From an uncultured Candidatus Saccharibacteria bacterium (GTDB taxonomy: Bacteria > Patescibacteriota > Minisyncoccia > Phycocordibacterales > JAACPR01), in assembly GCA_964401885.1 (NCBI GenBank), contig CAYOAC010000001.1, positions 1-39,860 on the forward strand: a stretch of 39,860 nucleotides of DNA, written 5' to 3'. Numbering within the stretch: the first letter of the stretch is position 1; each line of letters begins with the position of its first letter. The notes beneath the pieces are model-generated. The model saw nothing but the letters and a program-made list of their open reading frames with translations, had not been told where the DNA came from and ran no database searches. Both the position numbers and the translations under genes were made by a program. This document shows positions 3,860-39,259 of the stretch, one piece after another.

Positions 3860-3874
3860 CCAAACAACTCAGAT

Positions 3875-5146
3875 ATGGCAAAAGGTAATTTGAAAAAAAC
3901 AAAAACAAACACAAAAAAAACAGTCAAAAAAACTGTTCCAACAAAAAAACAAAAAGTAGTTACAAAAATAAATAAAACTACAAATAAAAAGCCAGTTTCT
4001 ATTATCAAAAATAAAAAGACGGAGAAGGATAAAATTAAAAAGGAGATAATTAAAAAAGTAGTTACTCCTGCTCAAAAAAAATCTCAAGAACAAAATCTTA
4101 AATCAGATAAGTTGCTTAAAAGGGGAAAAGAAAGAGGGTACGTAACTTATGACGAAATCTTAAAGGATTTTCCTAATATTGAAACAGACCTTGTTTTTCT
4201 AGATGAATTATATGAAAAATTTACTGATGCAGGAATAGACGTTCTTGAAAATAGTGGTTTATTAAATATAAATGTCTCTTTAGAAGAAAACAAATATTCA
4301 TACAAATCTTCTGGACAATATGATTCAATTCAAATTTATTTGAAGGAGATTGGGCAGTATGCTTTGATTAAGGCATCAGAAGAAAAAGATTTGGCTAAAA
4401 GAATTGAAGTCGGTGATCAAGAAGCCAAGATGCTTCTTGCTCGTGCCAACTTAAGACTTGTAGTTTCAATTGCAAAAAAATATGTAGGACGAAGTCCTGA
4501 TTTGACTCTTCTAGACTTGATTCAAGAAGGTAATCTCGGTTTGTTCAAAGCCGTAGATAAATTCGATTGGACAAAAGGTTATAAGTTTTCAACATATGCA
4601 ACATGGTGGATTAGACAGGCGATCACAAGAGCTTTGGCTGATCAATCAAGAACTGTTCGAATTCCAGTTCATATGCATGAGACAATTGCAAAGTATAAAC
4701 AAGTATATAGAAGATTATCACTTGATCTTGGACGAGATCCTATGCCTGAAGAAATTGCAACAGAGATGGGTCTTGAAATTGAAAAAATTTATACAATTGA
4801 AAAAATTGATCAAGCTACAGTTTCTTTAGAAAGTCCTGTTGGTGATGATGGAGATGAAAAGTCTACACTTGGAGATTTTATTGCTGACGATAAAATTCTT
4901 TCACCAGATCAAGAAGCTTCACGAAGAATTCTTAAAGATCAAGTTAATGAAATTCTTGAAGAGCTTACAGATAAAGAAAGAAAAATTCTTGAATTACGAC
5001 ATGGTCTTGTTGATGGAATTCAACACACACTTGAAGAGGTGGGAAAAATGTTTGGGGTTACTCGAGAACGTATTAGACAAATTGAAGCTAAGGCTCATGA
5101 AAAAATAAGACAACATGAGAAAGCTAATCGGTTAGAGAATTATTAA
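3875..5146 (+). CDS. rpoD: RNA polymerase sigma-70 factor, with a lysine-rich low-complexity N-terminus
   Basis: Region 2 [18 protein letters not shown] and [14 protein letters not shown]; region 4 [12 protein letters not shown]...[15 protein letters not shown]. Sits immediately after dnaG, the classic dnaG-rpoD linkage. Confidence 0.92.
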
Positions 5147-5169
5147 TATCTAATAACCTTATAAATATT

Positions 5170-5210
5170 TAACAACAAAACACCCGAAAAAATCGGGTGT
5201 TTTGTTGTAA
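5170..5210 (+). terminator. Rho-independent terminator after rpoD
   Basis: aacaaaacacccgaaaaaatcgggtgttttgtt: a ~14-bp perfect stem with T-rich 3' flank. Confidence 0.75.
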
Positions 5211-5303
5211 TTTAAATTTGACAAATAAATAATAACGTTTAGTATTATTTTGAACCTGAAAACGTCAGTTGAAATACTGACATCACAAAAAAATAACAAA
5301 TAT

Positions 5304-6362
5304 ATGGACGAGAGCGCTGTTGTAAGGCTTTTAGGGATTGATTATTCTTACCTTACTATTTTACAGGAACCTGAACGAAGAATTTGTACGGTTTCTGATG
5401 CTCAGGATTGGCTTCGTTGCACTCCTGAACATAGTAAAGAGAGAAAAGAAGCATTAAGAGTGTGGGGAAGGCTTTCTCTGAAATGTGTTAAAAAGGCACA
5501 AACACGAGAAGAATTGAGATACCATTATTATAATGCTCCTGAAAATTCGAGAGCAAAAAGACTTGCTGAAGAATTACTGGATAAGTACTCTTTTTTCGAA
5601 ATTAAAGGTGCAAATACTCTAGATAAGGCAAGAACCGCATACGATAATGCCGTCGTTGGAAGTGTTTCCGAAAGGAAAGCTTTCAAACTTTGGGATGAAT
5701 TTGCTCTCTTAGAAGTAGAAAGAGCAAAAAGCTTCAGGTATCTCATCTCGGTTTTTCTAAGGTCTCCTGCTAACGGTAAGGCTGAACTCTTGTGTATGCA
5801 AAAGATTCTTGCGTACAAATGGAAATTTGATAATTTTGCGCAGGTATCTAGAATAATTTCAACCGCAAGTTCTAAAAGGGTTGTAAAAATCTTTTTTGAT
5901 GCATGGGACAAATTTTCTCGGGCAGAAATCGAATCAGCAAGTACCCCAGAAAAACTCAAACTCGCATTTATTCATGTTCGAAAGGGTAGCCCTCTTAAAA
6001 AAAGGGCTTTGAAAAAATGGATTGCTTGCTGTACAAAAATTCATCAATTGCAAGAAGTGTACGATGTTCATAAAGCTGACGGTGAGTTTATGTCCTTGGT
6101 TTATGAAAGACGTCATCAGCTTTCAATTATCGAGATTAGAGCCGCTACTACTCTGGAGGAATATCGTGATGCATACAAAAAAACAATGAGTAAGAGTAAA
6201 ACTCAACAATTGGTATTAGATGCATGGGATGAATGTGCTTTATCTTATTTGGATAAGGTTACTACACCTCAAGAATATAAATATTTGTTCATCAATTCTA
6301 CTTTTAGTGGTAGAGCAAGAAAAATCATCATCAAAAGACTGCTAGAGATGCCTAGTGCATAA
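5304..6362 (+). CDS. Hypothetical protein with internal ~70-100-aa helical repeats. The ORF-finder start is TTG at 5250; the first ATG is at 5304.
   Basis: Long ORF with a repeated W(D/G)(E/K/R)(F/L/C) plus A.T.EE motif: KLWDEFALLE, DAWDKFSRAEIESASTPEKL, LDAWDECALSYLDKVTTPQEY, RVWGRLSL. Visibly higher G+C than its neighbours. A promoter-like TTGACA lies at 5216. I recognise no homolog. Confidence 0.5.
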   Translation: MDESAVVRLLGIDYSYLTILQEPERRICTVSDAQDWLRCTPEHSKERKEALRVWGRLSLKCVKKAQTREELRYHYYNAPENSRAKRLAEELLDKYSFFEIKGANTLDKARTAYDNAVVGSVSERKAFKLWDEFALLEVERAKSFRYLISVFLRSPANGKAELLCMQKILAYKWKFDNFAQVSRIISTASSKRVVKIFFDAWDKFSRAEIESASTPEKLKLAFIHVRKGSPLKKRALKKWIACCTKIHQLQEVYDVHKADGEFMSLVYERRHQLSIIEIRAATTLEEYRDAYKKTMSKSKTQQLVLDAWDECALSYLDKVTTPQEYKYLFINSTFSGRARKIIIKRLLEMPSA

Positions 6363-9543: not shown

Positions 9544-10242
9544 TTATTGAGATTTTTTTCCTGAAAGGATTGTATCAATTGCTCCTTTAACATTTGCGTA
9601 AGGTTGATTTCCCTTGATTGGAATTTGAACTCCTGATTTTGAAATCAAAATGTTATAAGGTGTTCCAAATTTTGGGTCAACTTTTACAATAGCATTTCCA
9701 TCGGCTACATCTTTTGCTACTTCTTGTTTTGGATAATCTGAAGCCAAACATGCTTTGAATTCACTTTCATTAATTCCAATTTTTATAGCTGTTGCAAGAA
9801 TGTTCTCTGTTTTAAGTGAATCTGGTGCACCTGGAATTAAAATATTTGCAAATTCCCAGAATTTATTGTTTCCACCAAGCTTAGTCACACATTCTGATGC
9901 CTCTGCAGCGGGTGCAGCTGATTTGTGAATTTGAACAAGTGGATAATGACGATATACCCAAGCAACTTTTCCTGTCGGACCATATTCATCCATAATTTTT
10001 TGCATGGTCTGATGGAAACCTGCGCAGAAAGGACATTCAAAATCTGAATATTCTACAATAATTATTTCGGCATTTGGATCTCCAATAATATGATCATTAG
10101 AGTCAATTTTTGAAATAGCTAATGGAGCTGTTTCATCTGGTTTGTCTGGATTCTTTCTTGATTGTTGATCTGATAGGTAGATTGCTCCCGCGATAATCAT
10201 CCCTGAAACAACAATTGAAATTGGAATGAAAAATTTATTCAT
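9544..10242 (-). CDS. DsbA-family thiol:disulfide oxidoreductase (membrane-anchored thioredoxin fold)
   Basis: N-terminal TM/signal segment. CxxC active site FECPFCAGFH. Confidence 0.8.
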   Translation of the reverse strand: MNKFFIPISIVVSGMIIAGAIYLSDQQSRKNPDKPDETAPLAISKIDSNDHIIGDPNAEIIIVEYSDFECPFCAGFHQTMQKIMDEYGPTGKVAWVYRHYPLVQIHKSAAPAAEASECVTKLGGNNKFWEFANILIPGAPDSLKTENILATAIKIGINESEFKACLASDYPKQEVAKDVADGNAIVKVDPKFGTPYNILISKSGVQIPIKGNQPYANVKGAIDTILSGKKSQ

Positions 10243-10278
10243 TATGATTTTTATGTTATATTAATTCGTATATTATAT

Positions 10279-11085
10279 ATGCTTTCATCAATTCATTCAA
10301 TCATTCTCGGAATAGTCCAAGGAATAACTGAATTTTTACCCATTTCTTCTTCAGGACATTTGATCATTACTAGAGAACTGCTTCATATTAATCAAAGTGG
10401 CGGGCTAGCTTTTGATGCAGTATTGCAACTAGCAACTGCTTTGACGGTGGTTTTGTATTTTAGAAAAGATATCATTGATTTAATTTTTAATTTATTTAGG
10501 AAAATAAAAGACCCACAAAAAACTAGGCTAACACTTTATCTGATAATAGGAACAATACCCGCTGTTATATTTGGATTATTGCTTCAAGATTACATGGATA
10601 CTGTTTTTAGAAATGCAAAATTAGTGGCACTAACTCTTGTACTAGGTTCTTTAATAATGTCTTTTGCTGATAAAGTCATATCTAAATATCAACAAAAAAA
10701 TATTTCAAAAGATTTGGATATCAAAAAAAGTTTTTGCATAGGATTATTTCAATGTCTGGCGCTTGTTCCTGGGATGTCACGATCAGGAATGACAATATCA
10801 GGTGGATATTTTCTCGGTTTATCAAAAGATTTGGCTGTAAGATTCAGTTTCCTACTTTCAATCCCAATTATAGTTGCATCTGGCTTATTAAAATTGATAG
10901 ATATTATAAAAGAGCCCAGTTTAATTTCTGTTGGGCTGTTCAATTTAGGATTAGGAGCCTTATCTGCCTTTATATTTGGGTGGTTGGCAATAGATTTTCT
11001 ATTAAAATTCTTAAAAACAAACTCATTTAAGTCTTTTGTAGTATATAGAATATTACTTGCGATTGTTATTCTGCTGTTTATTTAA
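10279..11085 (+). CDS. uppP: Undecaprenyl-diphosphatase
   Basis: Signature ILGIVQGITEFLPISSSGHL and GMSRSGMTISGG. Polytopic membrane protein. Confidence 0.92.
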   Translation: MLSSIHSIILGIVQGITEFLPISSSGHLIITRELLHINQSGGLAFDAVLQLATALTVVLYFRKDIIDLIFNLFRKIKDPQKTRLTLYLIIGTIPAVIFGLLLQDYMDTVFRNAKLVALTLVLGSLIMSFADKVISKYQQKNISKDLDIKKSFCIGLFQCLALVPGMSRSGMTISGGYFLGLSKDLAVRFSFLLSIPIIVASGLLKLIDIIKEPSLISVGLFNLGLGALSAFIFGWLAIDFLLKFLKTNSFKSFVVYRILLAIVILLFI

Positions 11086-11089
11086 TTAT

Positions 11090-11665
11090 TTAGAAACCTA
11101 ATGTGGGTGCAAGATTGTTTTCTGGAATTATTTCCCATTTTGAAGTATCAAGGTTTATTTTTTCTTTTTCACCATTTTTTTCATATAAAAGATATCCATT
11201 TTCTTTTGCAAAGTCATAAACTTTCTTGGTTACAACAACGTCTTGTTTACAATATGAGACAACTTCATCAATTTTGCCTTGTCTCCACCAGATAATAGAT
11301 TGGAGACCGTCGGCTGATTTGGATTCTCCGAGTGTTGAAGATGCAATTTCATCAAGTTTGATCCTTCTCCCTAGGACCTGTCTAATTTCTTTTAATAAAT
11401 CAAGACTCTTTATTTGTGTTAAATCACCAGCATAATATTTATCTAATAGGGGAATATCGAAATGATCACCATTAAAACTCACGAGCATGTCGGCCCTTTC
11501 TATTAGTGGCCACAATTTGCCAAGGTCTTCTTTAAAATAAGAAGTCATTTCATCGGTCTCACTGTCGTGTACACATACTACTGCAAGATCAAGATCTGCT
11601 GGATTAGGTGAACCGACTTCATCAAATGTATTTGTTGTTTCAATATCGAATGTAAGTATTTTCAT
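11090..11665 (-). CDS. DEDD-family 3'-5' exonuclease (PolB-exonuclease-like, ~190 aa)
   Basis: Exo I FDIETTN, Exo II FNGDHFDIPLL, Exo III YCKQDV. Confidence 0.75.
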   Translation of the reverse strand: MKILTFDIETTNTFDEVGSPNPADLDLAVVCVHDSETDEMTSYFKEDLGKLWPLIERADMLVSFNGDHFDIPLLDKYYAGDLTQIKSLDLLKEIRQVLGRRIKLDEIASSTLGESKSADGLQSIIWWRQGKIDEVVSYCKQDVVVTKKVYDFAKENGYLLYEKNGEKEKINLDTSKWEIIPENNLAPTLGF

Positions 11666-25690: not shown

Positions 25691-25756
25691 TTCACATTTT
25701 GATAAAAAAGTCTATTTAATTTTTACCTATATTTAATTTGGAATATTTAAAAACAC

Positions 25757-25784
25757 TTGACAAATATTTTATATCATGTATACT
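25757..25784 (+). promoter_or_regulatory. Sigma-70-like promoter
   Basis: TTGACA, a 16-nt spacer, then TATACT. It faces the GC-rich non-coding island downstream. Confidence 0.45.
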
Positions 25785-25790
25785 ATTGCA

Positions 25791-26446
25791 AGATAAGTTT
25801 TTCACATGATTTCTGATTTTTGTTAGTAAGGTGGATATGTGAATCTTTTTAAAAGGATTTAGATACCCACCTTACTGCACAAATGCATAGGGAACAGATG
25901 GGATTTGATTAATGGATATGAGTTCGCCGCCTCACACGCTCCGAGCCGGCTGCTTCGCCGCCTCAGACACTCCCGAGCCGGCTGCTTCGCTGCCCCACTT
26001 CAGGGTCGGCCTCTCACAGCAAAACTCCCAAAAATCAAATAATATAATGAACACAAGCGCAGTGGAACCATCGCCGGCTTCACTTCGCGACAACCTGGCC
26101 TCGTAGAAAGGAGGAATTACTTAATACCCGTTAGAGAAGTGCCATAACAGGACTCAACTCTAAAAGGGCTAGTTTGACCAAATACACCCTGCACGTCAGT
26201 CGTTCCAATCGCACCCACCGCCAAATTAAAATTCCCTTCACCTCTATCATTTAGAAAGGTAATAAGCACCTAGAACCCTCTAGAGAAGTGCCATAGCACT
26301 CAAACTCGAAAAGGGCTGGTCGTGGCGTAAAAGTCACAAATACTACACAAAAATCAAAATCAGAACGTACTTTCGGACCTCCGGAGTCTCTCGCAACTAG
26401 CTTACCCAGCTAACTTGCCACGAGATTCCGGGGGTCTTCTTTTTTA
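25791..26446 (+). ncRNA. Candidate large structured non-coding RNA (GC-rich island with internal repeats)
   Basis: About 650 nt with G+C much higher than the flanks and no credible ORF. It contains a tandem ~33-nt duplication (..ccgcctca[c/g]ac[g/a]ctcc(c)gagccggctgcttcg..) and two ~75-nt dispersed copies (tagaaagg...tagagaagtgccata[a/g]c...aaaagggct[a/g]gt). It ends in a T-run after ggacctccggag...ctccgggggtc. Confidence 0.3.
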
Positions 26447-26472
26447 TAAAAATGAAAATCTTTAATAACTTC

Positions 26473-26500
26473 TTGTCTTTTTATTTATTTTTCGTATAAT
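26473..26500 (+). promoter_or_regulatory. Candidate promoter for tRNA-Ala
   Basis: TTGTCT, a 16-nt spacer, then TATAAT, about 40 nt upstream of the tRNA. Confidence 0.4.
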
Positions 26501-26539
26501 GATTTCACTTGATTAAATCAAGACCAATTTAAGAAATTG

Positions 26540-26614
26540 GGCCCGTAGCTCATCTGGTAGAGCACCTCACTTGCACTGAGGGGGTGGCAGGTTCGAGTCC
26601 TGTCGGGTCCACCA
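26540..26614 (+). tRNA. tRNA-Ala (anticodon UGC)
   Basis: Cloverleaf with acceptor GGGCCCG/CGGGTCC carrying G3:U70, anticodon loop CTTGCAC, T-loop GGTTCGAGTCC, and an encoded CCA. Confidence 0.95.
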
Positions 26615-26687
26615 TTGACGAAAACCCATTTTCGTTTTAATATAATCAAGAATCTCAAAGTACCTGACGTTTGTTGGGAATTTCACT

Positions 26688-27581: not shown

Positions 27582-27674
27582 AATATATGAAACAATAGAG
27601 GAACCAAAAGGGCTGAGATACACATTCAATTCGTGGTCTTGGTCCTTTTTTAATTCAAAATATTTTTTAATATC

Positions 27675-27729
27675 TTTAACTCACCAACCACCTGGTTCAA
27701 CAAAATCACATCCAATTCCACTATTGACA
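27675..27729 (+). repeat. Intergenic repeat copy a (ends in TTGACA)
   Basis: ctttaactcaccaaccacctggttcaacaaaatcacatccaattccactattgaca. Confidence 0.8.
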
Positions 27730-27758: not shown

Positions 27759-27896
27759 ATGAAGTCTAACTTCAAAAACGTGAGTTCCAAATAGGATCTG
27801 GCCGTCGGCCACTGCACAGGCTTACGTAGACAGAAATGTCTTTGCGTGCAGTAAACGATTCAAACCTCCGCTGGTTTTTCTGGCGGAGGTTTTTTA
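27759..27896 (+). ncRNA. Candidate small RNA (~135 nt) with its own promoter and intrinsic terminator
   Basis: GC-rich, non-coding, with several local hairpins (gaagtctaacttc; ggccgtcggcc; ctgcac...gtgcag enclosing gacagaaatgtc). It ends in the terminator cctccgctggtttttctggcggaggtttttt. Confidence 0.45.
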
Positions 27897-27905
27897 TAAA
27901 ATATT

Positions 27906-27958
27906 CTTTAACTCACCAACCACCCAGTTCAACAAAACCATATCCAAGTCCACTATTG
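27906..27958 (+). repeat. Intergenic repeat copy b
   Basis: ctttaactcaccaaccacccagttcaacaaaaccatatccaagtccactattg. Shares 27 identical nt with copy c. Confidence 0.8.
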
Positions 27959-28030
27959 TTTTTACCTTTATTTATTAATGTGTATTTTTTATACTTTAGT
28001 ATGAATTTGAATCATTGGTTTTTAAGTGTT
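27951..28030 (+). promoter_or_regulatory. Conserved upstream block 1 with the palindrome ATACTTTAGTAT (27991-28002)
   Basis: About 75 nt, roughly 85% identical to 36256-36335. The palindrome overlaps a -10-like TATACT. Lies upstream of the E1-like operon. Confidence 0.5.
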
Positions 28031-28127
28031 CATAAGCTATTGGGATGTTGCGAAAACATTGACATTATTGATTATGCTTGTATTGTAACAACGAAATGCT
28101 ATTTGAAAATTCAAACCAAAACTACAA

Positions 28128-29213
28128 ATGAAATACCAAATAAATCCTTCTGCCACTCTGTTGGTAAAAGAGAAGGGTAATATGATTGTTGTTAGATTTT
28201 TACTGGACGCCACACGCAATCTCCATGCTTTCGAAATGTCACCGATTGGTGAACAAATATTAACAAGGATGTATGAAGTGGTATCTGAAGAGAATCTACT
28301 TACTGAATTTGATCTTGGAGGTGAAGATTTGGAGCAATTCCTTGCTCCACTAATTACTTCTGGATTGGTTCTTTCTGAAGAAAATTTCACTCATCTTAAT
28401 GCTCTCGGAGAGCGTAATATTAGGACTATGGAATTTTTCCGATCGTTTGCTTCTGTTGAAAGACCAACTATCGAACTGGTTCAGAAGCTTATGAATTCAA
28501 CCATTCTAGTTCTTGGACTTGGAGGTATCGGTACCTGGGTTGTAGAGATGTTTGCTCGGATGGGAATAAAAAAACTAATACTTGTCGATCCTGACAGTGT
28601 AGAAGAATCAAATATTCCTCGCCAAGCGATGTTCACTCGACTTAGTGTTGGCCTTTTAAAAACGGAGGCAGCGAAAGCGTTCTGTGAGGCCATATCTGAA
28701 AATATTGAAGTACAAATATTTGCCGAGCAGATATCAGATTCAGAATCCTTGTTATCAAAACTTCAGGGAGTTGATCTTGTCATAAACTGTGCTGATAAAC
28801 CAGATGTTGATTTCACTAATTCACTCGTAACATATGCTTGTTTCAAAGCAGGTGTGCCTCACATCCTTTGTGGAGGATATGATGGACATCTTAGTTCACT
28901 TGGACAGACTGTGATTCCTGGAGAAACTTCTTGCTGGTTTTGTTTTGCCGATAGCGGTATTTACGAAAATCTTCTTGATGGCTTCAGGATTGTAGACAGG
29001 ACATCGAATCAACAGATCGGTGGAACAATTTGTCCTATTGGTGTTTATGTTGCTAGCTTCCAGGTTCAAGAAGCTGTAAGAATTCTTACAGGTTGTTCTG
29101 AACCAGTCATGATTAACCGCAAGGCAGAGATAGATTTTACAAATCTGTCTCAAAACTTTGTAAACGTACCCAAACTCAAAACATGTAAACTTTGTGGAAA
29201 TGAAAACCATTAA
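28128..29213 (+). CDS. E1-like (ThiF/MoeB/MccB-family) adenylyltransferase with an extra N-terminal ~100-aa domain and a C-terminal Cys4 zinc motif
   Basis: Nucleotide-binding VLGLGGIGTWVVEMFARMGIKKLILVDPDSVEESNIPRQ. Cys pairs CWFC and CKLC. The N-terminal domain resembles the N-terminus of the downstream enzyme. Confidence 0.85.
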   Translation: MKYQINPSATLLVKEKGNMIVVRFLLDATRNLHAFEMSPIGEQILTRMYEVVSEENLLTEFDLGGEDLEQFLAPLITSGLVLSEENFTHLNALGERNIRTMEFFRSFASVERPTIELVQKLMNSTILVLGLGGIGTWVVEMFARMGIKKLILVDPDSVEESNIPRQAMFTRLSVGLLKTEAAKAFCEAISENIEVQIFAEQISDSESLLSKLQGVDLVINCADKPDVDFTNSLVTYACFKAGVPHILCGGYDGHLSSLGQTVIPGETSCWFCFADSGIYENLLDGFRIVDRTSNQQIGGTICPIGVYVASFQVQEAVRILTGCSEPVMINRKAEIDFTNLSQNFVNVPKLKTCKLCGNENH

Positions 29214-30432
29214 AATTAACCCTCATCTGGAACTTATGGATCCAGTTGCAGGACAAGTGAGAAATACTAAATCAGGAGAGGTATTCAGCCTTTCCTTCGA
29301 AGCACTGTCTGTTATTTCATTATTTGATGAACCTAAAAAAGTCGGTGACGACTTTGAGGGTTTGGAAAATATTGTTATGTCAGATGATAATGAAGCGGTG
29401 AAAGCATTCATTGAAAGTCTTTTGGAACAGGAAGTTCTGATTTTCGAGGAAGAATTCGATCAAACTCCCAAAAGCGATTGGGATCATAAAAGATTATTAG
29501 ATTTGGCTCTGGTTGAAAAACCATTCCTGTCTTGTTTGAGTGTTCCTGTCGCAGGTTTGGATTCAGAATATCCGTATGAGTTTGCAATCGTTGGAATGCC
29601 TTTCGATCTTGGTTCTACAGGATTTCCTGGATCAAGATTTGGTCCGACCAGACTGCGGGAACTTTCTGCTTCTGGCACAGATTATCGAGGACGATTCAGT
29701 GATTTGTCATGTGCTGGATGGTTATCAGAACATGGTGTGAAACTGTGTGAAGGGAAAAAGATTGTAGATATTGGAGATGTGATTCATCAAGTAGGGGAGC
29801 CATTCCATGACTTCTTCAAAAGGGTGAAGAATGTTAATAATATTCTGCGAGAAAAAGGTGTCATGCCAATCTTGATTGGAGGAGACCATTCTTGTACATA
29901 TGCATCGGTCTGTTCTGTGATAAAATATTCACAAGGCAAATCTTTGCATCTTGTTGTGTTCGATGCACACACAGACCTTGCGGACTACAATGCTTCTATT
30001 TCGCATAATCATGGCAACTTTGTTACCAGACTACTTTCTGAAGGGGTAGTAAAAAAGGTGACACATGTTGGTCTTCGTGGGATGCTTGGAAAAGCAGAAA
30101 CAAGGGACGGTTACGTCGCTGTTTATGCAGATCAGTGTACTTCTGTGGAAAAAGTAATGGAATACATTCCATTCGACCCTTTGGAGACTGTCTATGTCTC
30201 TTTTGATGTTGACGTGATAGATCCAATCTTTGCACCAGGAACAGGCACGCCTGTTTCTTTGGGACTAACACCTCAAATAGTTTTGTCAGTGATTAGAAAA
30301 ATCTTCGCATCTCAGAATGTAGAAGGTTTCGATATCGTTGAGTATAACCCTATGAGGGATATCAATGATATGACGGGTCATCTACTAATCAGTATGCTTC
30401 CGAAGTTTCTGGACGCTCTGCGTTCAAAGTAA
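29194..30432 (+). CDS. Arginase/agmatinase/formiminoglutamase-fold (ureohydrolase) metalloenzyme with an extra N-terminal ~110-aa domain
   Basis: Binuclear-Mn motifs GGDHS, DAHTD and SFDVDVIDP. Overlaps the E1-like gene by 20 nt (operon). Confidence 0.85.
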   Translation: MEMKTIKINPHLELMDPVAGQVRNTKSGEVFSLSFEALSVISLFDEPKKVGDDFEGLENIVMSDDNEAVKAFIESLLEQEVLIFEEEFDQTPKSDWDHKRLLDLALVEKPFLSCLSVPVAGLDSEYPYEFAIVGMPFDLGSTGFPGSRFGPTRLRELSASGTDYRGRFSDLSCAGWLSEHGVKLCEGKKIVDIGDVIHQVGEPFHDFFKRVKNVNNILREKGVMPILIGGDHSCTYASVCSVIKYSQGKSLHLVVFDAHTDLADYNASISHNHGNFVTRLLSEGVVKKVTHVGLRGMLGKAETRDGYVAVYADQCTSVEKVMEYIPFDPLETVYVSFDVDVIDPIFAPGTGTPVSLGLTPQIVLSVIRKIFASQNVEGFDIVEYNPMRDINDMTGHLLISMLPKFLDALRSK

Positions 30433-30654
30433 GAAGATTGACTGATTTAGAAAGTGGCGTATAGTGTTCACAGGTTCGAATTCTCGGGCCGTTCAAACAT
30501 CCAACTACGGAAAGGAGAATAATAAGCACATGAAACAGATTCAAGCCAGTAAGCTCACAATCGTTCCTCTCGGAGTGGTCGTCGATGCCGTCTGTATGCG
30601 CGGCCTTCGTCGCCGTCGTGCATGACATTCCATCATCTTTACTGATGGTTCCCA

Positions 30655-30694
30655 CACCCTGCCAAGTCCTCGACTCGGCAGGGTGTTTCTTTTA
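30655..30694 (+). terminator. Rho-independent terminator after the arginase-fold gene
   Basis: caccctgcc...ggcagggtg stem followed by tttcttttat. Confidence 0.7.
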
Positions 30695-30704
30695 TAATAC
30701 AAGC

Positions 30705-31241
30705 ATGACTTCACCAACAATCAAAACTCAAAATTATATAATACGACCTTTCAAAAAGGAGGATGCTTTATTATGGCAAAGTTGGGACATAGATCCTGAA
30801 ATCCAATCTCATATGCCAGAACCTGAGAATGAGTCTCAAGATATCTCACAACAATATGAATATATTGAAGAATGCGAAAAAGACGAAGAAGGATATTATT
30901 GGTCTGTTGAAACAAATGACGGAGTAACTATTGGTACAGTATCTTTATTTGAAATAAATTCTCACCATAAAAATGCCAATGTTGGGATTGTAATTGGTGA
31001 TAAAAATTATTGGGGTAAAGGTGTTGCAACAGAAGTACTTCAAACTTTGAGCTCTTATGCTTTTGAATATTTAGATGTTGTTCGAATTAGCGCAGAAGTT
31101 GAAGCTAATAATATTTCAATGCAAAAAGTATTTGAAAAGGTTGGATTCGTACAAGATGGAGTATTTAAAAAAGCACGAGTAAAAGAAGGAAAAAGAATAG
31201 ACGTGCTACATTTTGGGATAGTGAAAAATATTTTGAATTAA
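30705..31241 (+). CDS. GNAT-family N-acetyltransferase (RimJ/RimL-like)
   Basis: IIRPFKKEDA...VGIVIGDKNYWGKGVATE...ISAEVEANNISMQKVFEKVGF. Start placed at the Met after the terminator; the ORF finder gave 30585. Confidence 0.85.
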   Translation: MTSPTIKTQNYIIRPFKKEDALLWQSWDIDPEIQSHMPEPENESQDISQQYEYIEECEKDEEGYYWSVETNDGVTIGTVSLFEINSHHKNANVGIVIGDKNYWGKGVATEVLQTLSSYAFEYLDVVRISAEVEANNISMQKVFEKVGFVQDGVFKKARVKEGKRIDVLHFGIVKNILN

Positions 31242-31555
31242 AGAACGTCCTGTAAAAAAGTTTATATTTATTCTTCAAAAAATAATATTTCTCATGAACT
31301 TAAAACCGGAGGTGATGGCTATTGTGATGTTTTAAGTATAGAAGAAGATATTTGGCTTAGAGACTTAAGGCACAGAGAATCAGATAATTAAAACAGCCCT
31401 CCTTTCGGAGGACTGCTCTTGGATGTGGTACCCTTAAAGTTTATGGAAACCCTAAGATATCTTTATTATATGAAGAACCTTGTTTTTGTCAATATTTTCA
31501 GTAAGTTGACATTTTAAATCAATATAATCTTTAAAACCTTCAATTCCTGCACTAC

Positions 31556-31587
31556 TCGGTTCAACAAAACCATATCCAAGTCCACAA
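31556..31587 (+). repeat. Intergenic repeat copy c
   Basis: ctcggttcaacaaaaccatatccaagtccac. Confidence 0.75.
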
Positions 31588-31599
31588 AAATAAAATCTG

Positions 31600-31748
31600 G
31601 AAGCGTGAGCTTTCAGATTTTTAATTTTTGTAGGGCCCGACAGGACGAGAAAGACGGAGGCCTAGGGTCCCTGCGTCCGAGTGACAACGAGGACCTGGGA
31701 TGGCCGAGTCGGGGTCGCGGAAATTTTCTCTAGAAAATTATCTGTGAC
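31600..31748 (+). ncRNA. GC-rich non-coding island, a candidate structured RNA
   Basis: Starts near GGGCCCG (31633-31639), which is identical to the tRNA-Ala 5' acceptor strand, and runs into the duplicated tRNA 3' end. Contains the hairpin aattttctctagaaaatt. No ORF. Confidence 0.3.
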
Positions 31749-31767
31749 CGAGTCCTGTCGGGTCCAC
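31749..31767 (+). repeat. Direct repeat of the tRNA-Ala 3' end (attR-like): CGAGTCCTGTCGGGTCCAC
   Basis: 19 of 19 nt identical to 26594-26612 inside the tRNA-Ala T-arm and acceptor. Followed by ctactgTTTGACA, as in the repeat family. Confidence 0.8.
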
Positions 31768-31786
31768 TACTGTTTGACAAAACACA

Positions 31787-32088: not shown

Positions 32089-32120
32089 TGTCTGAATTTG
32101 TTTTTATACTTTTAATATCT

Positions 32121-32187
32121 CATTCAACTCCACCAACTCTTTCACAACCAGGTTCAACAAAACCACCCCCCCAAGTCCACCATTGAT
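32121..32187 (+). repeat. Intergenic repeat copy d
   Basis: ...caccaactctttcacaaccaggttcaacaaaaccacccccccaagtccaccattgatt. Confidence 0.7.
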
Positions 32188-32189
32188 TA

Positions 32190-33103: not shown

Positions 33104-33140
33104 CAACCGCTTGACCCTTTAGGGAGGCGGTTTTCTATTT
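33104..33140 (+). terminator. Hairpin terminator
   Basis: aaccgcttgaccctttagggaggcggttttctatttt. Confidence 0.6.
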
Positions 33141-33177
33141 TCAAAATCTCTTTCAAAACTTTTAATTCAGAGACTAT

Positions 33178-33210
33178 CTGATTCAACAAAATAATATCCA
33201 ATTCCACTTC
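33178..33210 (+). repeat. Intergenic repeat copy e (degenerate)
   Basis: ctgattcaacaaaataatatccaattccacttc. Confidence 0.6.
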
Positions 33211-33466
33211 TTTAGAAAAGTGTTTTAATTTTAATCACTCTTGGTTTATTCTGAGCCTGTAGAAGGGCAAGTCATCTAGGATTTATGTGGGAAAATTGGG
33301 TCAGTCATGATTTTTTCAACCAGTATAACTGCAGGTGTGCGTTTTTTAGTTTAGATTCAGATTAGAATTGAAGGAAACATTGACTTTTTTAAATAAAATG
33401 ATATTGTCCGTGAAGGCTTGTTATGTTTGACTCAGATAAGTCAAAATAGCGAGGAAAACAAGAACA

Positions 33467-36142
33467 TTGAAACAACTAGTTAGCAATACTATGCCACAAG
33501 ATGAATTCCCACCAAGAGGTGGAAGACCACAGGATCGAGATTTAACCCTCGCTCCAAATGAATATGCATTTGTAATGGACACTACCAAAGGTGTTGTCCA
33601 AACATGTGTTGGCCCGCTCGTACATACCATTTCCGGTAATGACCAACCTGTGCGTTGGAACCCGGGAACTAGTAAGTTCGATCGTTGCGCTCAAGACGCC
33701 GCAATTTGTCTTTTTGTCTACGTACAAGAAGGTGATTACGTTCGTCTTACTAATCCTGCCAAGAGTGACACCCAGTTTCATCCTCCGGTCGGTGGTAAGC
33801 AAAATGCGGTAGACCTAAAACATGGTCGTACTGTTAATCTGCGTGGTCCACTTTCTTTTGCCCTTTGGCCCGGCCAATCGGCACAAGTTATCGAGGGTCA
33901 CCGTTTGAGGTCCAACGAATTCTTGCTTCTTACCGTTACAAACGAAAATGAGGCGAGGAACAATTGGACTAGTGCGGTAATGGAACCGCAACAATCAGTC
34001 GGTTCAGTCGGTTCGAGAGCCGAAGGTGATGAAGGTGAAACAGCCGCTACAATCGAAAAGGCCAATATTGTTACTCCCAAGAGTACCAACATTGATCCTT
34101 CTAAGCTGACTGTTGGTCAGCGTCTTATTATTTGCGGTACGGAATGCAGTTTCTATATGCCGCCAACGGGTATTGAAGTTATTCCGGTTGAAAACGGACG
34201 ATATGTCCGTGAAGCAGTGACCCTCGAACGTTTGGACTATTGCATTCTTCTTGATGAAAACGGTATTCGCCGTCTTGTCACTGGACCGAATGTTGTGTTT
34301 CCTGAGCCGACCGAGACGTTTATCACTGATGCTCAAGGATCGAATATTTTCACAGCTCTTGAGCTCAATGAGCTTCAGGGTGTGTATGTGAAGGTTACCG
34401 CCAATTATACGGATGAAAAAGGTGTTAAGCATAGAGCTGGTGATGAGTTATTTATCACTGGTGCCCAATGTCCAGTTTATGTTCCTCGTGAGGAACATCG
34501 TATTATCCTGTATGGTGACTCCAGTAAGGTGAAGCACAATTCTGTCGCAATTACTGCTGGTGAAGCTCGCTATGTGATGGATCGTATGACTGGTGATGTG
34601 GAAACTGTTAAGGGACCAAAAATGTTCCTTGCAGATCCGCGCAAACAATTGCATATCCGTCGGCCGTTGCCAGAAAGATTGGTTAAGTTGCTTTATCCTA
34701 GAAATAGTGAAGCAATTGAAATCAATGAATGGCTTCGCAAAGAAGCTGCTAAATCTGGATCTGGCGATATAGTCCTTGATGAAAGTGCGCAATTGTATCG
34801 CGCTTCAACTACAGGTGATCGCAGTTTGTCCCGTCGTCGTGCACCTGGAGCAGGTCAAATTATTGCTGAATCGTTTGATCGTGGTGGCCAATATACACCA
34901 CCACGCACTATTACCCTCGAAACGAAATACGAAGGTGCAGTGCAATTTAGCGTGTGGCCTGGTTATGCGGTGCTTATCGTCGACAAGACTGGTAAGAGCC
35001 GTGTTGTTCAGGGTCCAAGTCCAGTGATTTTGGATTACGGCGAAGTCCCACAAGTCTTCTCATTGTCTACCGGTACTCCGAAGACGGATGAAAAGATTGT
35101 CGAGGATGTCTTCCTCAAGACGCATGGAAATTGCGTTTCGGATGAAGTTATCGTCGAGACTGAAGATTTGGTCAATATCCGTATTCGTTTGTCCTATCGC
35201 GTTAACTTCGAAGGTGATGATCCCAAGAAGTGGTTCGAACTCGACAACTACGTTCAATTTATGTGTAAGCACCTGCGCTCAATACTCAGGAATGCTGCAC
35301 ATGGATACGGTGTTGAGGCGTTCTATAGCGATGCGGCTAACATCGTTCGCGATACAGTTCTTGGAGGCACAACTCCCAAGAAGAGCGAAGGTGAAGGTCT
35401 CAAAGCCGAACGTACTGGTCGCGCATTTGCCGAAAATGGAATGCGTGTCTACGACGTTGAAGTCCTTGAGGTTGATATTGATGATAATGAAATCGCGAAC
35501 CAAATGCTCGCATTTCGGCATTCGACTGTTCAAGGTGCGCTCCGGATTCGCGCTGCAAGGCAAAAACTGGAAGAAACCAGAGCTATTGAGGATACCAAGC
35601 GCGAAAGTTTGGCTGAAACGATGAAGACTGAAGCTGCTCAAGCTGAAGCAGAAATGCAAAAGCTGGAAGCTCAAGTCCAGATTGCAAATGCCAGGCAAGT
35701 TTCTGAATTTGGTCTTCAAAGAGAAAGGCAGGAACAAGAACTGTCGATGTCAGGACGCAAGTTGCAGGCTGATAAGGCTAATCAGGCTGAGTTGGACGTT
35801 ATTGAAGCGGCTAAGCGTGATCGTGAGCGGGCATCTGGTGAACTCAAGCATGAAATGGCTAAAAAGGCGGAAGAACTTCGTCTTACTGGTCTTAATGCTG
35901 AAGCTGATGCCTTGGTCAAGAAGACTCAGGCGGTCTCGCCGGACTTGATTGCAGCACTTCAGGGTGTTGCTGCGAGTGGTCTTGCTGATAGTATGGCGAA
36001 GAACTTCAGTGTTCTTGCTATCCTTCAAGACAAGGGTGTTGCTGATGTAGCCAAGAGTGTGTTTGCAAACACGCCTCTTGCTGATTCTATCAATCAAGTG
36101 CTTCGACATCTCTCTACCCCTAAAGGTGGTGATGTAAGCTGA
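33467..36142 (+). CDS. Major vault protein (MVP) homolog: N-terminal tandem vault repeats, shoulder domain, C-terminal coiled-coil cap-helix
   Basis: Recurring ~55-aa units with the GxE(L/W)(F/L)(I/V).G....Y(V/M)P pattern: GQRLIICGTECSFYMPPTGIEV and GDELFITGAQCPVYVPREEHRI. The shoulder-like block GAVQFSVWPGYAVLIVDKTGKSRVVQGPSPVILDYGEVPQVFSLSTGTPK...VIVETEDLVNIRIRLSYRVNFE aligns with eukaryotic MVP ...[39 protein letters not shown]...[22 protein letters not shown]. The last ~200 aa are strongly heptad/coiled-coil. 891 aa, which is MVP-sized. Markedly higher G+C than the surrounding genome. Confidence 0.85.
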   Translation: MKQLVSNTMPQDEFPPRGGRPQDRDLTLAPNEYAFVMDTTKGVVQTCVGPLVHTISGNDQPVRWNPGTSKFDRCAQDAAICLFVYVQEGDYVRLTNPAKSDTQFHPPVGGKQNAVDLKHGRTVNLRGPLSFALWPGQSAQVIEGHRLRSNEFLLLTVTNENEARNNWTSAVMEPQQSVGSVGSRAEGDEGETAATIEKANIVTPKSTNIDPSKLTVGQRLIICGTECSFYMPPTGIEVIPVENGRYVREAVTLERLDYCILLDENGIRRLVTGPNVVFPEPTETFITDAQGSNIFTALELNELQGVYVKVTANYTDEKGVKHRAGDELFITGAQCPVYVPREEHRIILYGDSSKVKHNSVAITAGEARYVMDRMTGDVETVKGPKMFLADPRKQLHIRRPLPERLVKLLYPRNSEAIEINEWLRKEAAKSGSGDIVLDESAQLYRASTTGDRSLSRRRAPGAGQIIAESFDRGGQYTPPRTITLETKYEGAVQFSVWPGYAVLIVDKTGKSRVVQGPSPVILDYGEVPQVFSLSTGTPKTDEKIVEDVFLKTHGNCVSDEVIVETEDLVNIRIRLSYRVNFEGDDPKKWFELDNYVQFMCKHLRSILRNAAHGYGVEAFYSDAANIVRDTVLGGTTPKKSEGEGLKAERTGRAFAENGMRVYDVEVLEVDIDDNEIANQMLAFRHSTVQGALRIRAARQKLEETRAIEDTKRESLAETMKTEAAQAEAEMQKLEAQVQIANARQVSEFGLQRERQEQELSMSGRKLQADKANQAELDVIEAAKRDRERASGELKHEMAKKAEELRLTGLNAEADALVKKTQAVSPDLIAALQGVAASGLADSMAKNFSVLAILQDKGVADVAKSVFANTPLADSINQVLRHLSTPKGGDVS

Positions 36143-36157
36143 TATTGATTGTTACTA

Positions 36158-36188
36158 GTCGTGGTGCGCAAGCGCACCACGGCTTTTT
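36158..36188 (+). terminator. Strong hairpin terminator after the MVP gene
   Basis: gtcgtggtgcgcaagcgcaccacggcttttt. Confidence 0.9.
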
Positions 36189-36250
36189 AATTTAATATTA
36201 TAAACCCCCAGAAGATCAAGTAGAATAATTCTAAACCCCACACAAGAAGT

Positions 36251-36262
36251 CAGTCCACTACT
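36251..36262 (+). repeat. Intergenic repeat copy g (3' part only: cagtccactactg)
   Basis: Matches the ...agtccactattg end of the repeat family. Leads into conserved block 2. Confidence 0.5.
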
Positions 36263-36335
36263 GTTTTTATCTTTATTTTTTAATGTTTAATTTTCATACT
36301 TTAGTATAGGTTTGAACCATTATGAATATATGAAC
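36256..36335 (+). promoter_or_regulatory. Conserved upstream block 2 with the palindrome ATACTTTAGTAT (36296-36307)
   Basis: About 85% identical to 27951-28030. Upstream of the 245-aa membrane protein gene. Confidence 0.5.
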
Positions 36336-36370: not shown

Positions 36371-37108
36371 ATGAATAAAAAAATAAATATTACTTTCGCA
36401 ATTTTCGGATTGTTATTTGGGGTAATTGCATTTTTTCTGTGGAGTGGACAAATAGAACTTGTAAAAACTGGGGTACACTCTTCTGGAGCGATTGTTGGTA
36501 TATCAAATCATAAATCCGATAAAGGGACTATGATGTATGCACCTATTGTTGAATATGAATTTAATAATACAAAAAATACATTTGTTTCTAAATTATCGAC
36601 TAGTAATCCAGGATATAAAATTGGAGAAAGTGTAAAAATATTGATTCCAAAAAATGGAAATCAACCACAAATAAATTCTTTTATAAGTTTATGGTTTGCT
36701 GCTATCGTAACATCTTTTCTAAGTTTAACTTTTTTGATTGCGGGTATTTTATTTTTTATTAGAGATATAAAAGTAAATAAAAACAATGAAATATTAAAAA
36801 GTAGAGGAGTATTAATAAAGGCAACCAACCCTATTGTTATAAATGGTTTTGAAGATAAAATTCAATTTCAGACAACTGGTTTATTATCCTTAGTGTCTAA
36901 TTTCAGAAAAAGAACAAATTTACTAAATAAAATTAAAACTCAGTGGTTAAATCCTGAAGATGGTAAAGTTTATATATTTTATAGTGAATATTTAAATTAT
37001 GATCCAACTCCATATTTAGGTGAAACTGTGGACATTAAAATATTGCCCGAAAACCCCAGTGTGTACAAGTTTGAAAATATTCCACAATCAGCAAAAATTA
37101 CTAATTAA
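36371..37108 (+). CDS. Hypothetical membrane protein (two TM helices separated by a beta-rich domain)
   Basis: 245 aa. An N-terminal TM helix, a ~90-aa soluble segment, a second TM helix, and a C-terminal domain. No recognised homolog. Confidence 0.55.
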   Translation: MNKKINITFAIFGLLFGVIAFFLWSGQIELVKTGVHSSGAIVGISNHKSDKGTMMYAPIVEYEFNNTKNTFVSKLSTSNPGYKIGESVKILIPKNGNQPQINSFISLWFAAIVTSFLSLTFLIAGILFFIRDIKVNKNNEILKSRGVLIKATNPIVINGFEDKIQFQTTGLLSLVSNFRKRTNLLNKIKTQWLNPEDGKVYIFYSEYLNYDPTPYLGETVDIKILPENPSVYKFENIPQSAKITN

Positions 37109-37132
37109 AGTATTTGTAGTATTGTCAATTAT

Positions 37133-37179
37133 TTCACAACCCATTTCAACAAAACCACATTCAAGTCCTACTATTGACA
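37133..37179 (+). repeat. Intergenic repeat copy f (ends in TTGACA)
   Basis: cacaacccatttcaacaaaaccacattcaagtcctactattgaca. Followed 18 nt later by TAATAT. Confidence 0.7.
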
Positions 37180-38179: not shown

Positions 38180-39259
38180 ATGAAAAAAAATCAAGAGCGG
38201 CATGGTTTTTATCCTGGCACATTTGACCCAATACATTTGGGACATTTAGAAATAGCAAAGAATGCATCAGAGTTTGTCGATAAAGTATGGATTTTGCCAA
38301 ACCCAGTGAATTCAAAATCTAAACCAAACACAATGCCTTTGGACATTCGGCGTGATCTTGTAAATATTGCTATTGAAGATCATCCAAAATTATTTGTACC
38401 CAGTGATCAAGCTTGGGATGAATATGTTAAGGCATATCAAGAACATGGAGTTGATGAAGCCATCGATGCCTTATCAAAACATCTTGATGTTGAAGCTGTT
38501 CACATCGTAGGTCAAGATGTATTTGAAAAAAGACCTCATACCAAAAGAAAAGTTATGCTTATTCCTCGTGGAAATAATGTTTTAACAAATGTAGAAGGTG
38601 TGCATAGTGTCCTTCCTTCTGTTGGAAAAATATCTTCTTCAGATATACGTGAAAAATTAGCACGAGATTATAAAGTTGAGGGACTTCCTGTACCTGTTCT
38701 TGTTGAAATAAAGAAGAGAGGATTGTATGAAGGTACTAAAGAAAATACAGAAACTGAATTTGTAAGAAAATGGATAGAAGAAAAGATAGAATCATGGAAA
38801 AAAATGTTTGATCCAAATGAAATTGAAGTTGAATTAGGGGGAAGTCTTGTATCAGGACTTTTTGTTTTGGAAGGTGCAAAGAACTATGATGCTGATATAA
38901 AATTTATAGTTAAAAATCCAGAAGATTCAGAAATTCTTCGTAAAATACAATCTGTAACTGGATTGGAATACAGAAAGACTATACATATAAAGGAATTACC
39001 ACCTGAGAAAAATTTAGCAGTAATGGTGGAAAAAACAATTGTCATACCTGAAGTATCATTACCGATAGATATTGAAGGGTGCGTACGACAAGGACCATAT
39101 ATAAATTCTCATAAACTGTATAGAAAGTTTTTTAGTTCAGATGAATTGGAATTAATAAAAAAAAGAAAAGGAGAATTACGTAAAGACAAGGAGGCATATA
39201 AAAAATATAAATATGAAGTACGTGATGAATTAATGAGAAGAGTGCAACTTCAAAGATAA
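38180..39259 (+). CDS. nadD: Nicotinate-nucleotide adenylyltransferase (NadD-like) fused to a C-terminal ~170-aa domain with a GS...DxD minimal-nucleotidyltransferase-like motif
   Basis: N-terminal GTFDPIHLGHL (HxGH), ISSSDIRE and VLVEIKKRGLY match NadD signatures. The C-terminal GGSLVSGLFVLEGAKNYDADIKFIV resembles the Pol-beta-fold NTase motif. The symbol applies to the N-terminal domain only. Confidence 0.7.
   Translation: MKKNQERHGFYPGTFDPIHLGHLEIAKNASEFVDKVWILPNPVNSKSKPNTMPLDIRRDLVNIAIEDHPKLFVPSDQAWDEYVKAYQEHGVDEAIDALSKHLDVEAVHIVGQDVFEKRPHTKRKVMLIPRGNNVLTNVEGVHSVLPSVGKISSSDIREKLARDYKVEGLPVPVLVEIKKRGLYEGTKENTETEFVRKWIEEKIESWKKMFDPNEIEVELGGSLVSGLFVLEGAKNYDADIKFIVKNPEDSEILRKIQSVTGLEYRKTIHIKELPPEKNLAVMVEKTIVIPEVSLPIDIEGCVRQGPYINSHKLYRKFFSSDELELIKKRKGELRKDKEAYKKYKYEVRDELMRRVQLQR

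Follow-up and report, generated by a model that had tools for sequence, protein, structure and literature searches.

A stretch of 39,860 nt from an uncultured bacterium of the candidate phyla radiation (CPR; contig CAYOAC010000001.1), analysed here at its full length and called the window, carries a gene whose product is a genuine, full-length and collinear homolog of the eukaryotic major vault protein (MVP). The protein is a new and strongly divergent member, from a CPR host, of an MVP family that is already known and is widespread in bacteria and phages. In our reading, to which we give a probability of about 0.6, the gene is a divergent bacterial MVP that was horizontally acquired, and a vault-like shell is its most likely product. 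Whether prokaryotes assemble vaults and what vaults do are long-standing questions.

Homology and domain architecture

The MVP gene is an uninterrupted open reading frame (ORF) with a TTG start, and its position and length of 891 aa are as given in a first-pass annotation made from the sequence alone; the gene call at NCBI uses an ATG 24 nt further in, which yields an 883-aa product (Table 1). The two peptides quoted in that annotation as vault repeats, GQRLIICGTECSFYMPPTGIEV and GDELFITGAQCPVYVPREEHRI, were located at residues 217-238 and 325-346 of the translation, and the quoted shoulder segment RVVQGPSPVILDYGEVPQVFSLSTGTPK...VIVETEDLVNIRIRLSYRVNFE at residues 512-582. Membership in the MVP family (PF11978, PF01505 and PF17795 in Pfam; MVP in InterPro) was tested with Pfam profiles. 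MVP_shoulder (PF11978) matched residues 555-672 with 85.8 bits (cutoff 25, E=2.9e-24), covering profile positions 3-117 of 118, and Vault_3 was also above its cutoff (38.8 bits vs 28.8), with the classic Vault repeat profile remaining under its Pfam cutoff at 18.6 bits.

Sequence searches against structures gave the same answer. Rat, human and rabbit MVP were the matches of the single protein (~1e-21) when phmmer was run against all PDB sequences, and MVP chains were the only PDB matches of a 41-member family profile (best 4e-30). In a profile-sequence alignment, residues 249-582 were collinear with rat MVP 272-548, that is, with R6-R9 and the start of the shoulder (Prob 97.7%, E=2e-12, 30% identity); the rat sequence 1-548 used here was checked against PDB entry 4HL8. 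The HMMER alignment to rat MVP extends to residue 831 (rat 810), thus including the cap helix, and reproduces the shoulder alignment that had been proposed in the annotation. The two quoted repeat motifs align to one another in a profile self-comparison (E=0.003). Because the repeat signals in this comparison are weak overall (E 0.003-0.1), the number of repeats is taken from the structure model.

The full-length AlphaFold2 (AF2) model is of moderate quality only, with a predicted local distance difference test score (pLDDT) of 61 and a predicted template modelling score (pTM) of 0.31. Its best Foldseek matches were twelve full-length MVP chains (E ~1e-23), followed by R1-R7 fragments, and flotillin, prohibitin, HflK/C, QmcA and stomatin ranked below MVP (E 1e-5 to 1e-3). 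The repeat half taken alone also matched MVP R1-R7. The N-terminal array of vault beta-repeats is present, and the model places a predicted long single cap helix right after the shoulder. The C-terminal helices at residues 828-882 lie past the end of the alignment to rat MVP; they are strongly conserved across the bacterial family, with the window copy substituted at 8 conserved positions.

Pfam, PDB sequence searches and Foldseek therefore agree, at a significance far above chance, on genuine homology to MVP, and the full collinear domain order that the annotation had claimed, from the vault beta-repeats through an SPFH-like shoulder to the long cap helix, was recovered by both the profile and the structure checks it had proposed, with the region behind the helix as the putative counterpart of the cap ring. 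The identity of a generic SPFH/band-7 protein, which it had named as the alternative, was rejected, since Band_7 scored 15.1 bits against a cutoff of 23.6, no hydrophobic segment was found, no NfeD or paralog partner is conserved, and the repeat half matches MVP. No segment of the window protein reaches transmembrane-grade hydrophobicity (maximum 19-residue Kyte-Doolittle value of 1.27), and none of the 82 MVP family members, the window protein included, exceeds 1.6 in a 19-residue window, showing that the homolog is, by its predicted hydropathy, a soluble protein without a membrane anchor.

Family, divergence and acquisition

A search of 1.84 billion representatives clustered at 50% identity found 576 clusters matching the family at E<=1e-30. 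In GTDB representatives, with one genome per species, 302 MVP loci were found by an alignment-based scan; a scan of genome contigs with the single protein gave no relative. The loci are from Myxococcota, Riflebacteria, Eremiobacterota/Xenobia, Desulfobacterota, Chloroflexota, Bacteroidota, Sericytochromatia, Gemmatimonadota, Wallbacteria, Saccharibacteria, Parcubacteria and Paceibacterota. On the viral side, 139 IMG/VR contigs, many with a length of 100-500 kb, encode full-length homologs, as do the huge phages LR756500, LR756501 and LR756503, one of which is 735 kb. These viral copies are 36-42% identical to the window protein over >92% of its length, and their number is far above the two gut-phage copies of a 2023 preprint by Santos et al. 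(10.1101/2023.11.10.566534).

Such proteins have been described before. Daly et al. reported bacterial MVP-like proteins in silico in 2012/2013 (PMC3595041, PMC3762200), from Corallococcus, Plesiocystis (two), Microscilla, Saprospira, Flexibacter and Herpetosiphon, with predicted MVP-like folding and docking (PMC3762200), and Sokolskyi analysed the copies of Myxococcales, Cytophagales and Oscillatoriales in 2019 (10.1101/872010). One copy in a Parcubacteria metagenome-assembled genome (MAG) is labelled 'major vault protein' in GenBank, JGI labels many members likewise, and several others are named 'SPFH domain-containing protein' by NCBI. The rarity and novelty of bacterial MVP implied in the first-pass annotation thus do not hold. 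No paper connecting MVP with CPR was found in the literature searched.

Within this family, the closest relatives of the window protein are 43-48% identical to it over 95-97% of its length, none exceeds ~48%, and the protein forms its own 50%-identity cluster. It retains 107 of the 119 invariant positions and 191 of the 239 positions conserved at >=95%; other CPR copies retain 88-93% of conserved positions and non-CPR members 98-100%. Among the branches of the family, the CPR copies evolve fastest. The substitutions at conserved sites concentrate in the N-terminal domain 1 and the extreme C-terminus, and small insertions are present at residues 190-197, 636-643 and 715-723. As a side observation, the copies of a Saccharibacteria MAG (L021) and a Parcubacteria MAG (L044) are 77% identical, closer than expected for such distant lineages, which suggests intra-CPR transfer or a binning error.

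The window is otherwise an ordinary segment of bacterial chromosome, with rpoC, dnaG, rpoD, an AddA-like helicase gene, tgt, uvrB, adk, uvrA, uvrC and ddl. Database relatives of its UvrB fall into 36 clusters at 80-87% identity, and those that carry a name are MAGs of Candidatus Parcubacteria or Paceibacteria. This makes the host a Parcubacteria/Paceibacteria bacterium within CPR/Patescibacteria, in line with the small-genome host proposed in the annotation. The gene order rpoD...uvrB-adk-uvrA-uvrC-ddl-tRNA-Ala is common to three related contigs and diverges directly past the tRNA, and none of the window genes downstream of it was found in those three loci. The contrast between UvrB, with its 36 close relatives, and MVP, with none above ~48%, is, judged from sequence comparison, the pattern of an accessory gene.

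The G+C content of the MVP gene is 0.468 compared with ~0.31 for the window, an excess of 0.155. Among 80 other bacterial MVP loci used as a control, MVP genes also exceed their flanks in G+C, typically by 0.03-0.07 in low-GC genomes and by 0.02-0.12 in other CPR, so part of the excess stems from amino-acid composition; in equilibrated cases the G+C at third codon positions (GC3) of the control genes is at or below the flank G+C. GC3 in the window is 0.13-0.22 for core genes, 0.25-0.34 for the other island genes, 0.379 for the MVP gene and 0.14-0.17 from 36371 onward. With an excess of 0.155 and a GC3 about twice the host value, the MVP gene is therefore not equilibrated. The nearest relatives have MVP GC3 values of 0.43-0.57.

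In a neighbour-joining (NJ) tree with 100 bootstraps, the window MVP is sister to CPR copies (Saccharibacteria L021 and L057, Parcubacteria L044 and the unclassified L018) in 84 of 100 replicates, a placement that possibly results from long-branch attraction, as the CPR copies also have the longest branches. Another CPR bacterium is the likeliest source of the gene on these sequence comparisons. A phage donor was rejected, since the viral copies (<=42%) are more distant than the cellular bacterial ones (43-48%). Horizontal acquisition, which the annotation had drawn from a G+C far above that of the host, is thus supported by the foreign GC3, the lack of a close relative, the synteny break and an att-like repeat (Table 1), with the caveat that the G+C excess itself is partly compositional.

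Proposed vault-like assembly and alternative explanations

A eukaryotic half-vault has 39 subunits, and the vault shell is a 78-mer. The structurally characterized SPFH proteins all form rings or domes by lateral packing of the SPFH domain and helix, with the vault as the one soluble and fully closed example, and their subunit number is related to the length of the SPFH helix by y=0.1782x+10.22 (PMC12624060). With the predicted helix at residues 674-820, this regression gives 36.4 subunits, and ~35 at the family consensus length. The window MVP would thus self-assemble, its subunits packing side by side via the shoulder and a bundle of cap helices to build a large ring or dome of perhaps ~36 subunits. 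Contact between the N-terminal domains of two of these halves might then close them into a vault-like shell, in which cytoplasmic contents would be sequestered. Conservation across the family is highest in domain 1 (0.85) and lowest in the cap helix (0.53), and a maximum there would be expected if the two halves met at the N-terminal domain in a waist interface. When the ORFs flanking ~81 MVP loci were clustered, no neighbour family recurred in more than 7 of them, and three loci inspected singly showed no recurrent partner either. Because the family genes stand alone, it is suggested that the shell itself would be the functional unit, without dedicated operon-encoded cargo. The window gene has its own promoter candidate and a strong terminator and is therefore a putative monocistronic unit. 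Taken together, the architecture, the SPFH assembly principle, the helix regression and the N-terminal conservation argue for a vault-like shell as the most likely product.

Several points weigh against this reading. The window MVP is the most divergent copy sampled, with a mean identity of 44% to the 81 others compared with 60% among those, and its terminal branch is the longest in the family (0.58 vs a median of 0.11). Conserved positions are substituted in domain 1 (Y47C, K52V and T53H) and in the cap region (F834V, D836A, P849V, G854Q and G855D), changes that, to judge from the sequence, might interfere with assembly or with closure. Eukaryotic R1-R5 do not align by sequence to the initial ~230 residues, the AF2 model is of moderate confidence, the ring size is extrapolated from a predicted helix, and the NJ placement is subject to the attraction noted above. 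No TEP1/TROVE-like or PARP-like domain was found among the proteins of the ~40-kb window. The residues of the human NAD+/ADP-ribose pocket (R504, K506, R507, P508, H509, R511, L517, D521, F522 and W545; PMC12280208) map in the HMMER alignment to T537, K539, T540, D541, E542, V545, K551, N555, C556 and V579, and conservation of the pocket was rejected, as K539 alone of the ~10 is kept, besides the SxGxPK loop. Finally, the literature searched contained no description of a particle, a cargo or a function for a bacterial vault, in agreement with the annotation on this point.

Alternatively, the gene could be a recently transferred passenger that is non-functional, or has ceased to assemble, in its host, and relaxed selection following the transfer would account for its extreme divergence. 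The long branch and low identity, the loss of 12 of the 119 invariant and 48 of the 239 highly conserved positions where non-CPR members keep 98-100%, the clustering of substitutions in the C-terminal cap region and domain 1, and the location amid small hypothetical ORFs and gene-poor DNA (31.2-33.4 kb) are consistent with such a gene. However, an uninterrupted ORF of 891 codons is improbable in a 31% G+C genome without selection, 80-90% of the conserved positions are kept in every domain, the other CPR copies are also fast, matching a general rate acceleration in CPR, and the gene retains a promoter-like site and a strong terminator, so that we consider a passenger unlikely. An open single-ring dome or scaffold of the SPFH type, docking on a membrane or another complex without ever closing into a two-halved vault, is unlikely to the same degree. 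The shoulder and helix of the window protein do match flotillin, prohibitin, HflK/C, QmcA and stomatin in structure, several family members bear an SPFH name, half-vaults occur in eukaryotes (PMC12624060), and R1-R5, where the waist contacts would be sought, do not align by sequence. Yet a hydrophobic anchor is absent from all 82 members, Band_7 stays below its cutoff, neither NfeD nor an HflC-like protein or a protease is a conserved neighbour at the ~81 loci, the ~520 residues of vault repeats matching R1-R7 are without counterpart in membrane SPFH proteins, and the N-terminal domain is the most conserved, as an interface between halves would be.

A role in virus-host conflict, with the gene derived from a phage or belonging to a phage-defence or counter-defence island, is very unlikely, even though homologs occur in 139 viral contigs, huge phages and the two gut phages described earlier, the gene lies in an integration hotspot where a relative carries a serine recombinase, and eukaryotic vaults have been tied to NAD+ depletion by the TIR-like NADase of TEP1 (10.64898/2026.05.01.722283). 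Neither PADLOC defence models nor PHROGs phage families matched the window MVP or the hypothetical proteins of the island, and the ThiF-like neighbour matched a generic E1 domain only. Moreover, viral copies are less similar to the window protein than bacterial ones, the NAD+ pocket is not conserved, and most bacterial MVP genes are found amid ordinary chromosomal genes without a conserved partner. The sharp G+C step at the gene (0.46-0.48 vs 0.30), the repeats on both of its sides and the singleton status of the product in public data might also point to an assembly or binning artefact that joined a higher-GC fragment to a CPR contig. We regard this as extremely improbable, because the flanking repeats belong to one lineage-specific family with five further copies on the contig, the upstream promoter-like segment resembles that before the ThiF-like gene, the GC3 of the island neighbours (0.25-0.34) forms a gradient with no single break, and the MVP GC3 of 0.38 lies well below the 0.43-0.57 of its nearest relatives, a difference that an AT-rich host would produce by partial amelioration.

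A horizontally acquired MVP that would form a vault-like shell is therefore retained as the preferred reading. A bolder version, in which ultra-small CPR cells and bacteria generally build genuine vault-like shells with ~36 subunits per half from this single protein, and the gene travelled here as a unit of an undescribed, cassette-like accessory region punctuated by the lineage-specific ~60-nt repeat and its conserved antisense mini-ORF, is rather doubtful at present. If it were true, vaults would be an ancient nanocompartment of prokaryotes and phages and no eukaryotic invention. That genome-reduced CPR acquire and keep a 2.7-kb MVP gene argues that the protein is useful alone, without eukaryotic partners. 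The window gene makes the vault question no more testable than the hundreds of known homologs, among them copies from Myxococcota and Bacteroidota that can be cultivated.

Accessory region and relation to known systems

The features of the gene and of its surroundings are given in Table 1. The tRNA-linked accessory region proposed in the first-pass annotation was found, with tRNA-Ala at the synteny break and a repeat of the tRNA 3' end (26594-26617) downstream. These two sites delimit a 5.2-kb block with genes for a hypothetical protein, a ThiF-family E1-like protein, an agmatinase-like protein and a GNAT protein; the MVP gene is outside this block, 1.7 kb downstream of the repeat, in the same variable region. 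In a relative (L003, GCA_039805545.1), a serine recombinase with Resolvase and Recombinase domains (9684-11240) overlaps or abuts the same tRNA-Ala, and for this reason the site is taken as an integration hotspot in the lineage. No integrase or recombinase gene was detected in the window by domain and PHROGs scans. tRNA genes also occur beside MVP in a Saccharibacteria MAG (L066), whose MVP gene (3447-5933) begins 220 nt downstream of tRNA-Asn (3155-3228), and in a Deltaproteobacteria MAG (L045), with tRNA-Pro (8575-8649) after the MVP gene. A general association of bacterial MVP with tRNA genes was rejected, as a tRNA is nearby in only 2 of 60 other loci.

Table 1 Features of the MVP gene, its product and the surrounding accessory region (nucleotide positions in the window unless residues are stated)
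Feature	Position	Strand	Details
MVP-homolog gene	33467..36142	+	891 aa (TTG 33467) or 883 aa (ATG 33491); 98.3 kDa, isoelectric point 5.6, no transmembrane segment
Sigma-70-like promoter candidate	33380..33407	+	TTGACT-16-TATTGT, TG upstream; 60 nt 5' of the ORF; consensus match only
Intrinsic-terminator-like hairpin and T-run	36157..36184	+	12 bp, 8 GC; 15 nt past the stop codon
Vault repeat array	33533..35101	+	Residues 23-545; about 8-9 small beta domains
Interruptions of the vault array	residues 179-205, 403-448, 455-485		Disordered acidic linker; helical insertion, R8-like; disordered linker
Conserved 'keyhole loop', SLSTGTPK	residues 532-539		Just upstream of the shoulder
Shoulder domain, SPFH-like fold	35102..35482	+	Residues 546-672; PF11978 E=2.9e-24; pLDDT 80-90; Foldseek matches to flotillin, prohibitin, HflK/C
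Predicted cap helix, single and long	35483..35926	+	Residues 673-820; 147 residues in the model (AF2 helix 674-820, pLDDT ~80); HMMER alignment to rat cap helix
C-terminal short helices (cap-ring equivalent)	35927..36139	+	Residues 821-891
tRNA-Ala(tgc)	26539..26614	+	Single tRNA in the window; synteny with related Parcubacteria stops here
att-like direct repeat of the tRNA-Ala 3' end	31749..31772	+	22/24 match
Lineage-specific ~60-75-nt direct repeat	27648-27729, 27880-27961, 31512-31585, 32114-32188, 33134-33207 (+), 37106-37178		Core GGTTCAACAAAACCATATCCAAGTCCAC; partial copy at 36249-36266
Partial repeat and 70-nt segment	36249..36321	+	36252-36321 86% identical to 27947-28016; just downstream of the MVP terminator

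Within the 5.2-kb block, an apparent three-gene operon at 28128-31241 (+) encodes a ThiF-family E1-like adenylyltransferase, an agmatinase/ureohydrolase-like protein and a GNAT acetyltransferase. The first has an N-terminal extension of ~110 residues and the second one of ~125 residues, with its start overlapping the stop of the ThiF-like gene by 20 nt. All three products are under NCBIfam equivalog cutoffs, and the operon may be a cassette for small-molecule or peptide modification. Further downstream, a 359-aa protein encoded at 38180-39259 (+) with host-like codon usage carries a NadD-like nicotinate-nucleotide adenylyltransferase domain in its first ~185 residues, with no domain assigned in its C-terminal half.

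A lineage-specific direct repeat is found downstream of nearly every gene of the accessory region, with one copy upstream of the MVP gene and a partial copy downstream of its terminator. Neither the remainder of the window nor any other locus retrieved for comparison contains it, but it is present in two unrelated metagenome contigs (L088 and L089). In L089, the contig inspected for this, the layout is that of the window, namely gene, repeat, terminator and GC-rich segment. The minus strand of the repeat keeps a mini-ORF of 19-25 codons, V(D/E)LD(M/V/I)(I/V)LLN.(V/I)V.ELK.L (e.g., VELDVILLNQVVGELKILKNILN*), also in L089. The repeat may thus represent a family of antisense genes for small peptides, or else an element with a role in recombination or regulation. 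An attC site of the integron type was rejected, as the six copies fold, as single-stranded DNA, no better than shuffled sequences (z -1.3 to +1.7) and no integron integrase is present. The 86%-identical 70-nt segment precedes both the ThiF-like operon and a DUF3592-like gene, and a 33-nt promoter-like segment (AAACATTGAC...TATTGT) is common to the upstream regions of the ThiF-like (28054-28086) and MVP (33375-33407) genes. The sequence identity of these shared upstream segments suggests putative regulatory modules common within the island.

Two GC-rich non-coding elements of the region fold far better than shuffled controls. Between ddl and tRNA-Ala, where relatives have 68-308 nt, 25691-26538 is a gene-free 850 nt with a G+C of 0.41 (genome 0.31), containing a sigma-70-like TTGACA/TATACT at ~25757-25790, internal direct repeats at 25941/25973 and 26119/26268, and, at ~26376-26445, a strong hairpin that resembles a terminator; its part 25795-26450 (z=-5.6) is a candidate for a structured RNA of ~650 nt. 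The other, a ~145-nt element at 31626-31772 (+), was scored over 31622-31775 (z=-6.3). Its 5' end GGGCCCGACAGGAC repeats the 5' acceptor sequence of tRNA-Ala, the T-stem and acceptor 3' strand of tRNA-Ala recur at its 3' end with a 22/24 match, and the two ends pair as a ~15-bp closing stem around two hairpins (minimum free energy -76 kcal/mol). A similar GAG(C/T)CGGGGTCGCG segment follows the same repeat in L089. This element was called by neither ARAGORN nor Rfam and may represent either an RNA derived from a tRNA or the scar of an att site; 25795-26450 is likewise without an Rfam match. At a permissive threshold, Rfam detected no vault RNA, Y-RNA or other known RNA besides tRNA in 25.6-36.5 kb.

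Compared with eukaryotic MVP (rat, 4V60/4HL8; human, 9BW5), the window protein has an overall identity of ~17-20%, with R1-R5 beyond sequence alignment, and it has T, T, E, V, N, C and V in place of the basic-pocket residues R504, R507, H509, R511, D521, F522 and W545. Counterparts of TEP1, vPARP and vault RNA were not found in the window. The membrane SPFH cages formed by HflK/C, QmcA-YbbJ, flotillin, prohibitin and stomatin share with it the SPFH fold and a long wall helix, and would share the principle of an oligomeric dome and the relation of helix length to copy number (PMC12624060). The window protein differs from them in having no anchor, no NfeD or paralog partner, a Band_7 score below threshold and an additional vault-repeat extension of ~520 residues. 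The phage homologs of MVP are likewise full-length, but they are more distant from the window protein than the cellular copies, and no phage genes stand beside the window gene. The closest likeness is to the bacterial MVP-like proteins, including that of Enhygromyxa, which have the same full-length architecture of ~820-880 aa, are soluble, are encoded by stand-alone genes and are 43-48% identical to the window protein. From the published bacterial copies, the window copy is set apart by its CPR host, a group absent from those papers, by its being the most divergent, by its insertions and by its location in a tRNA-linked island.

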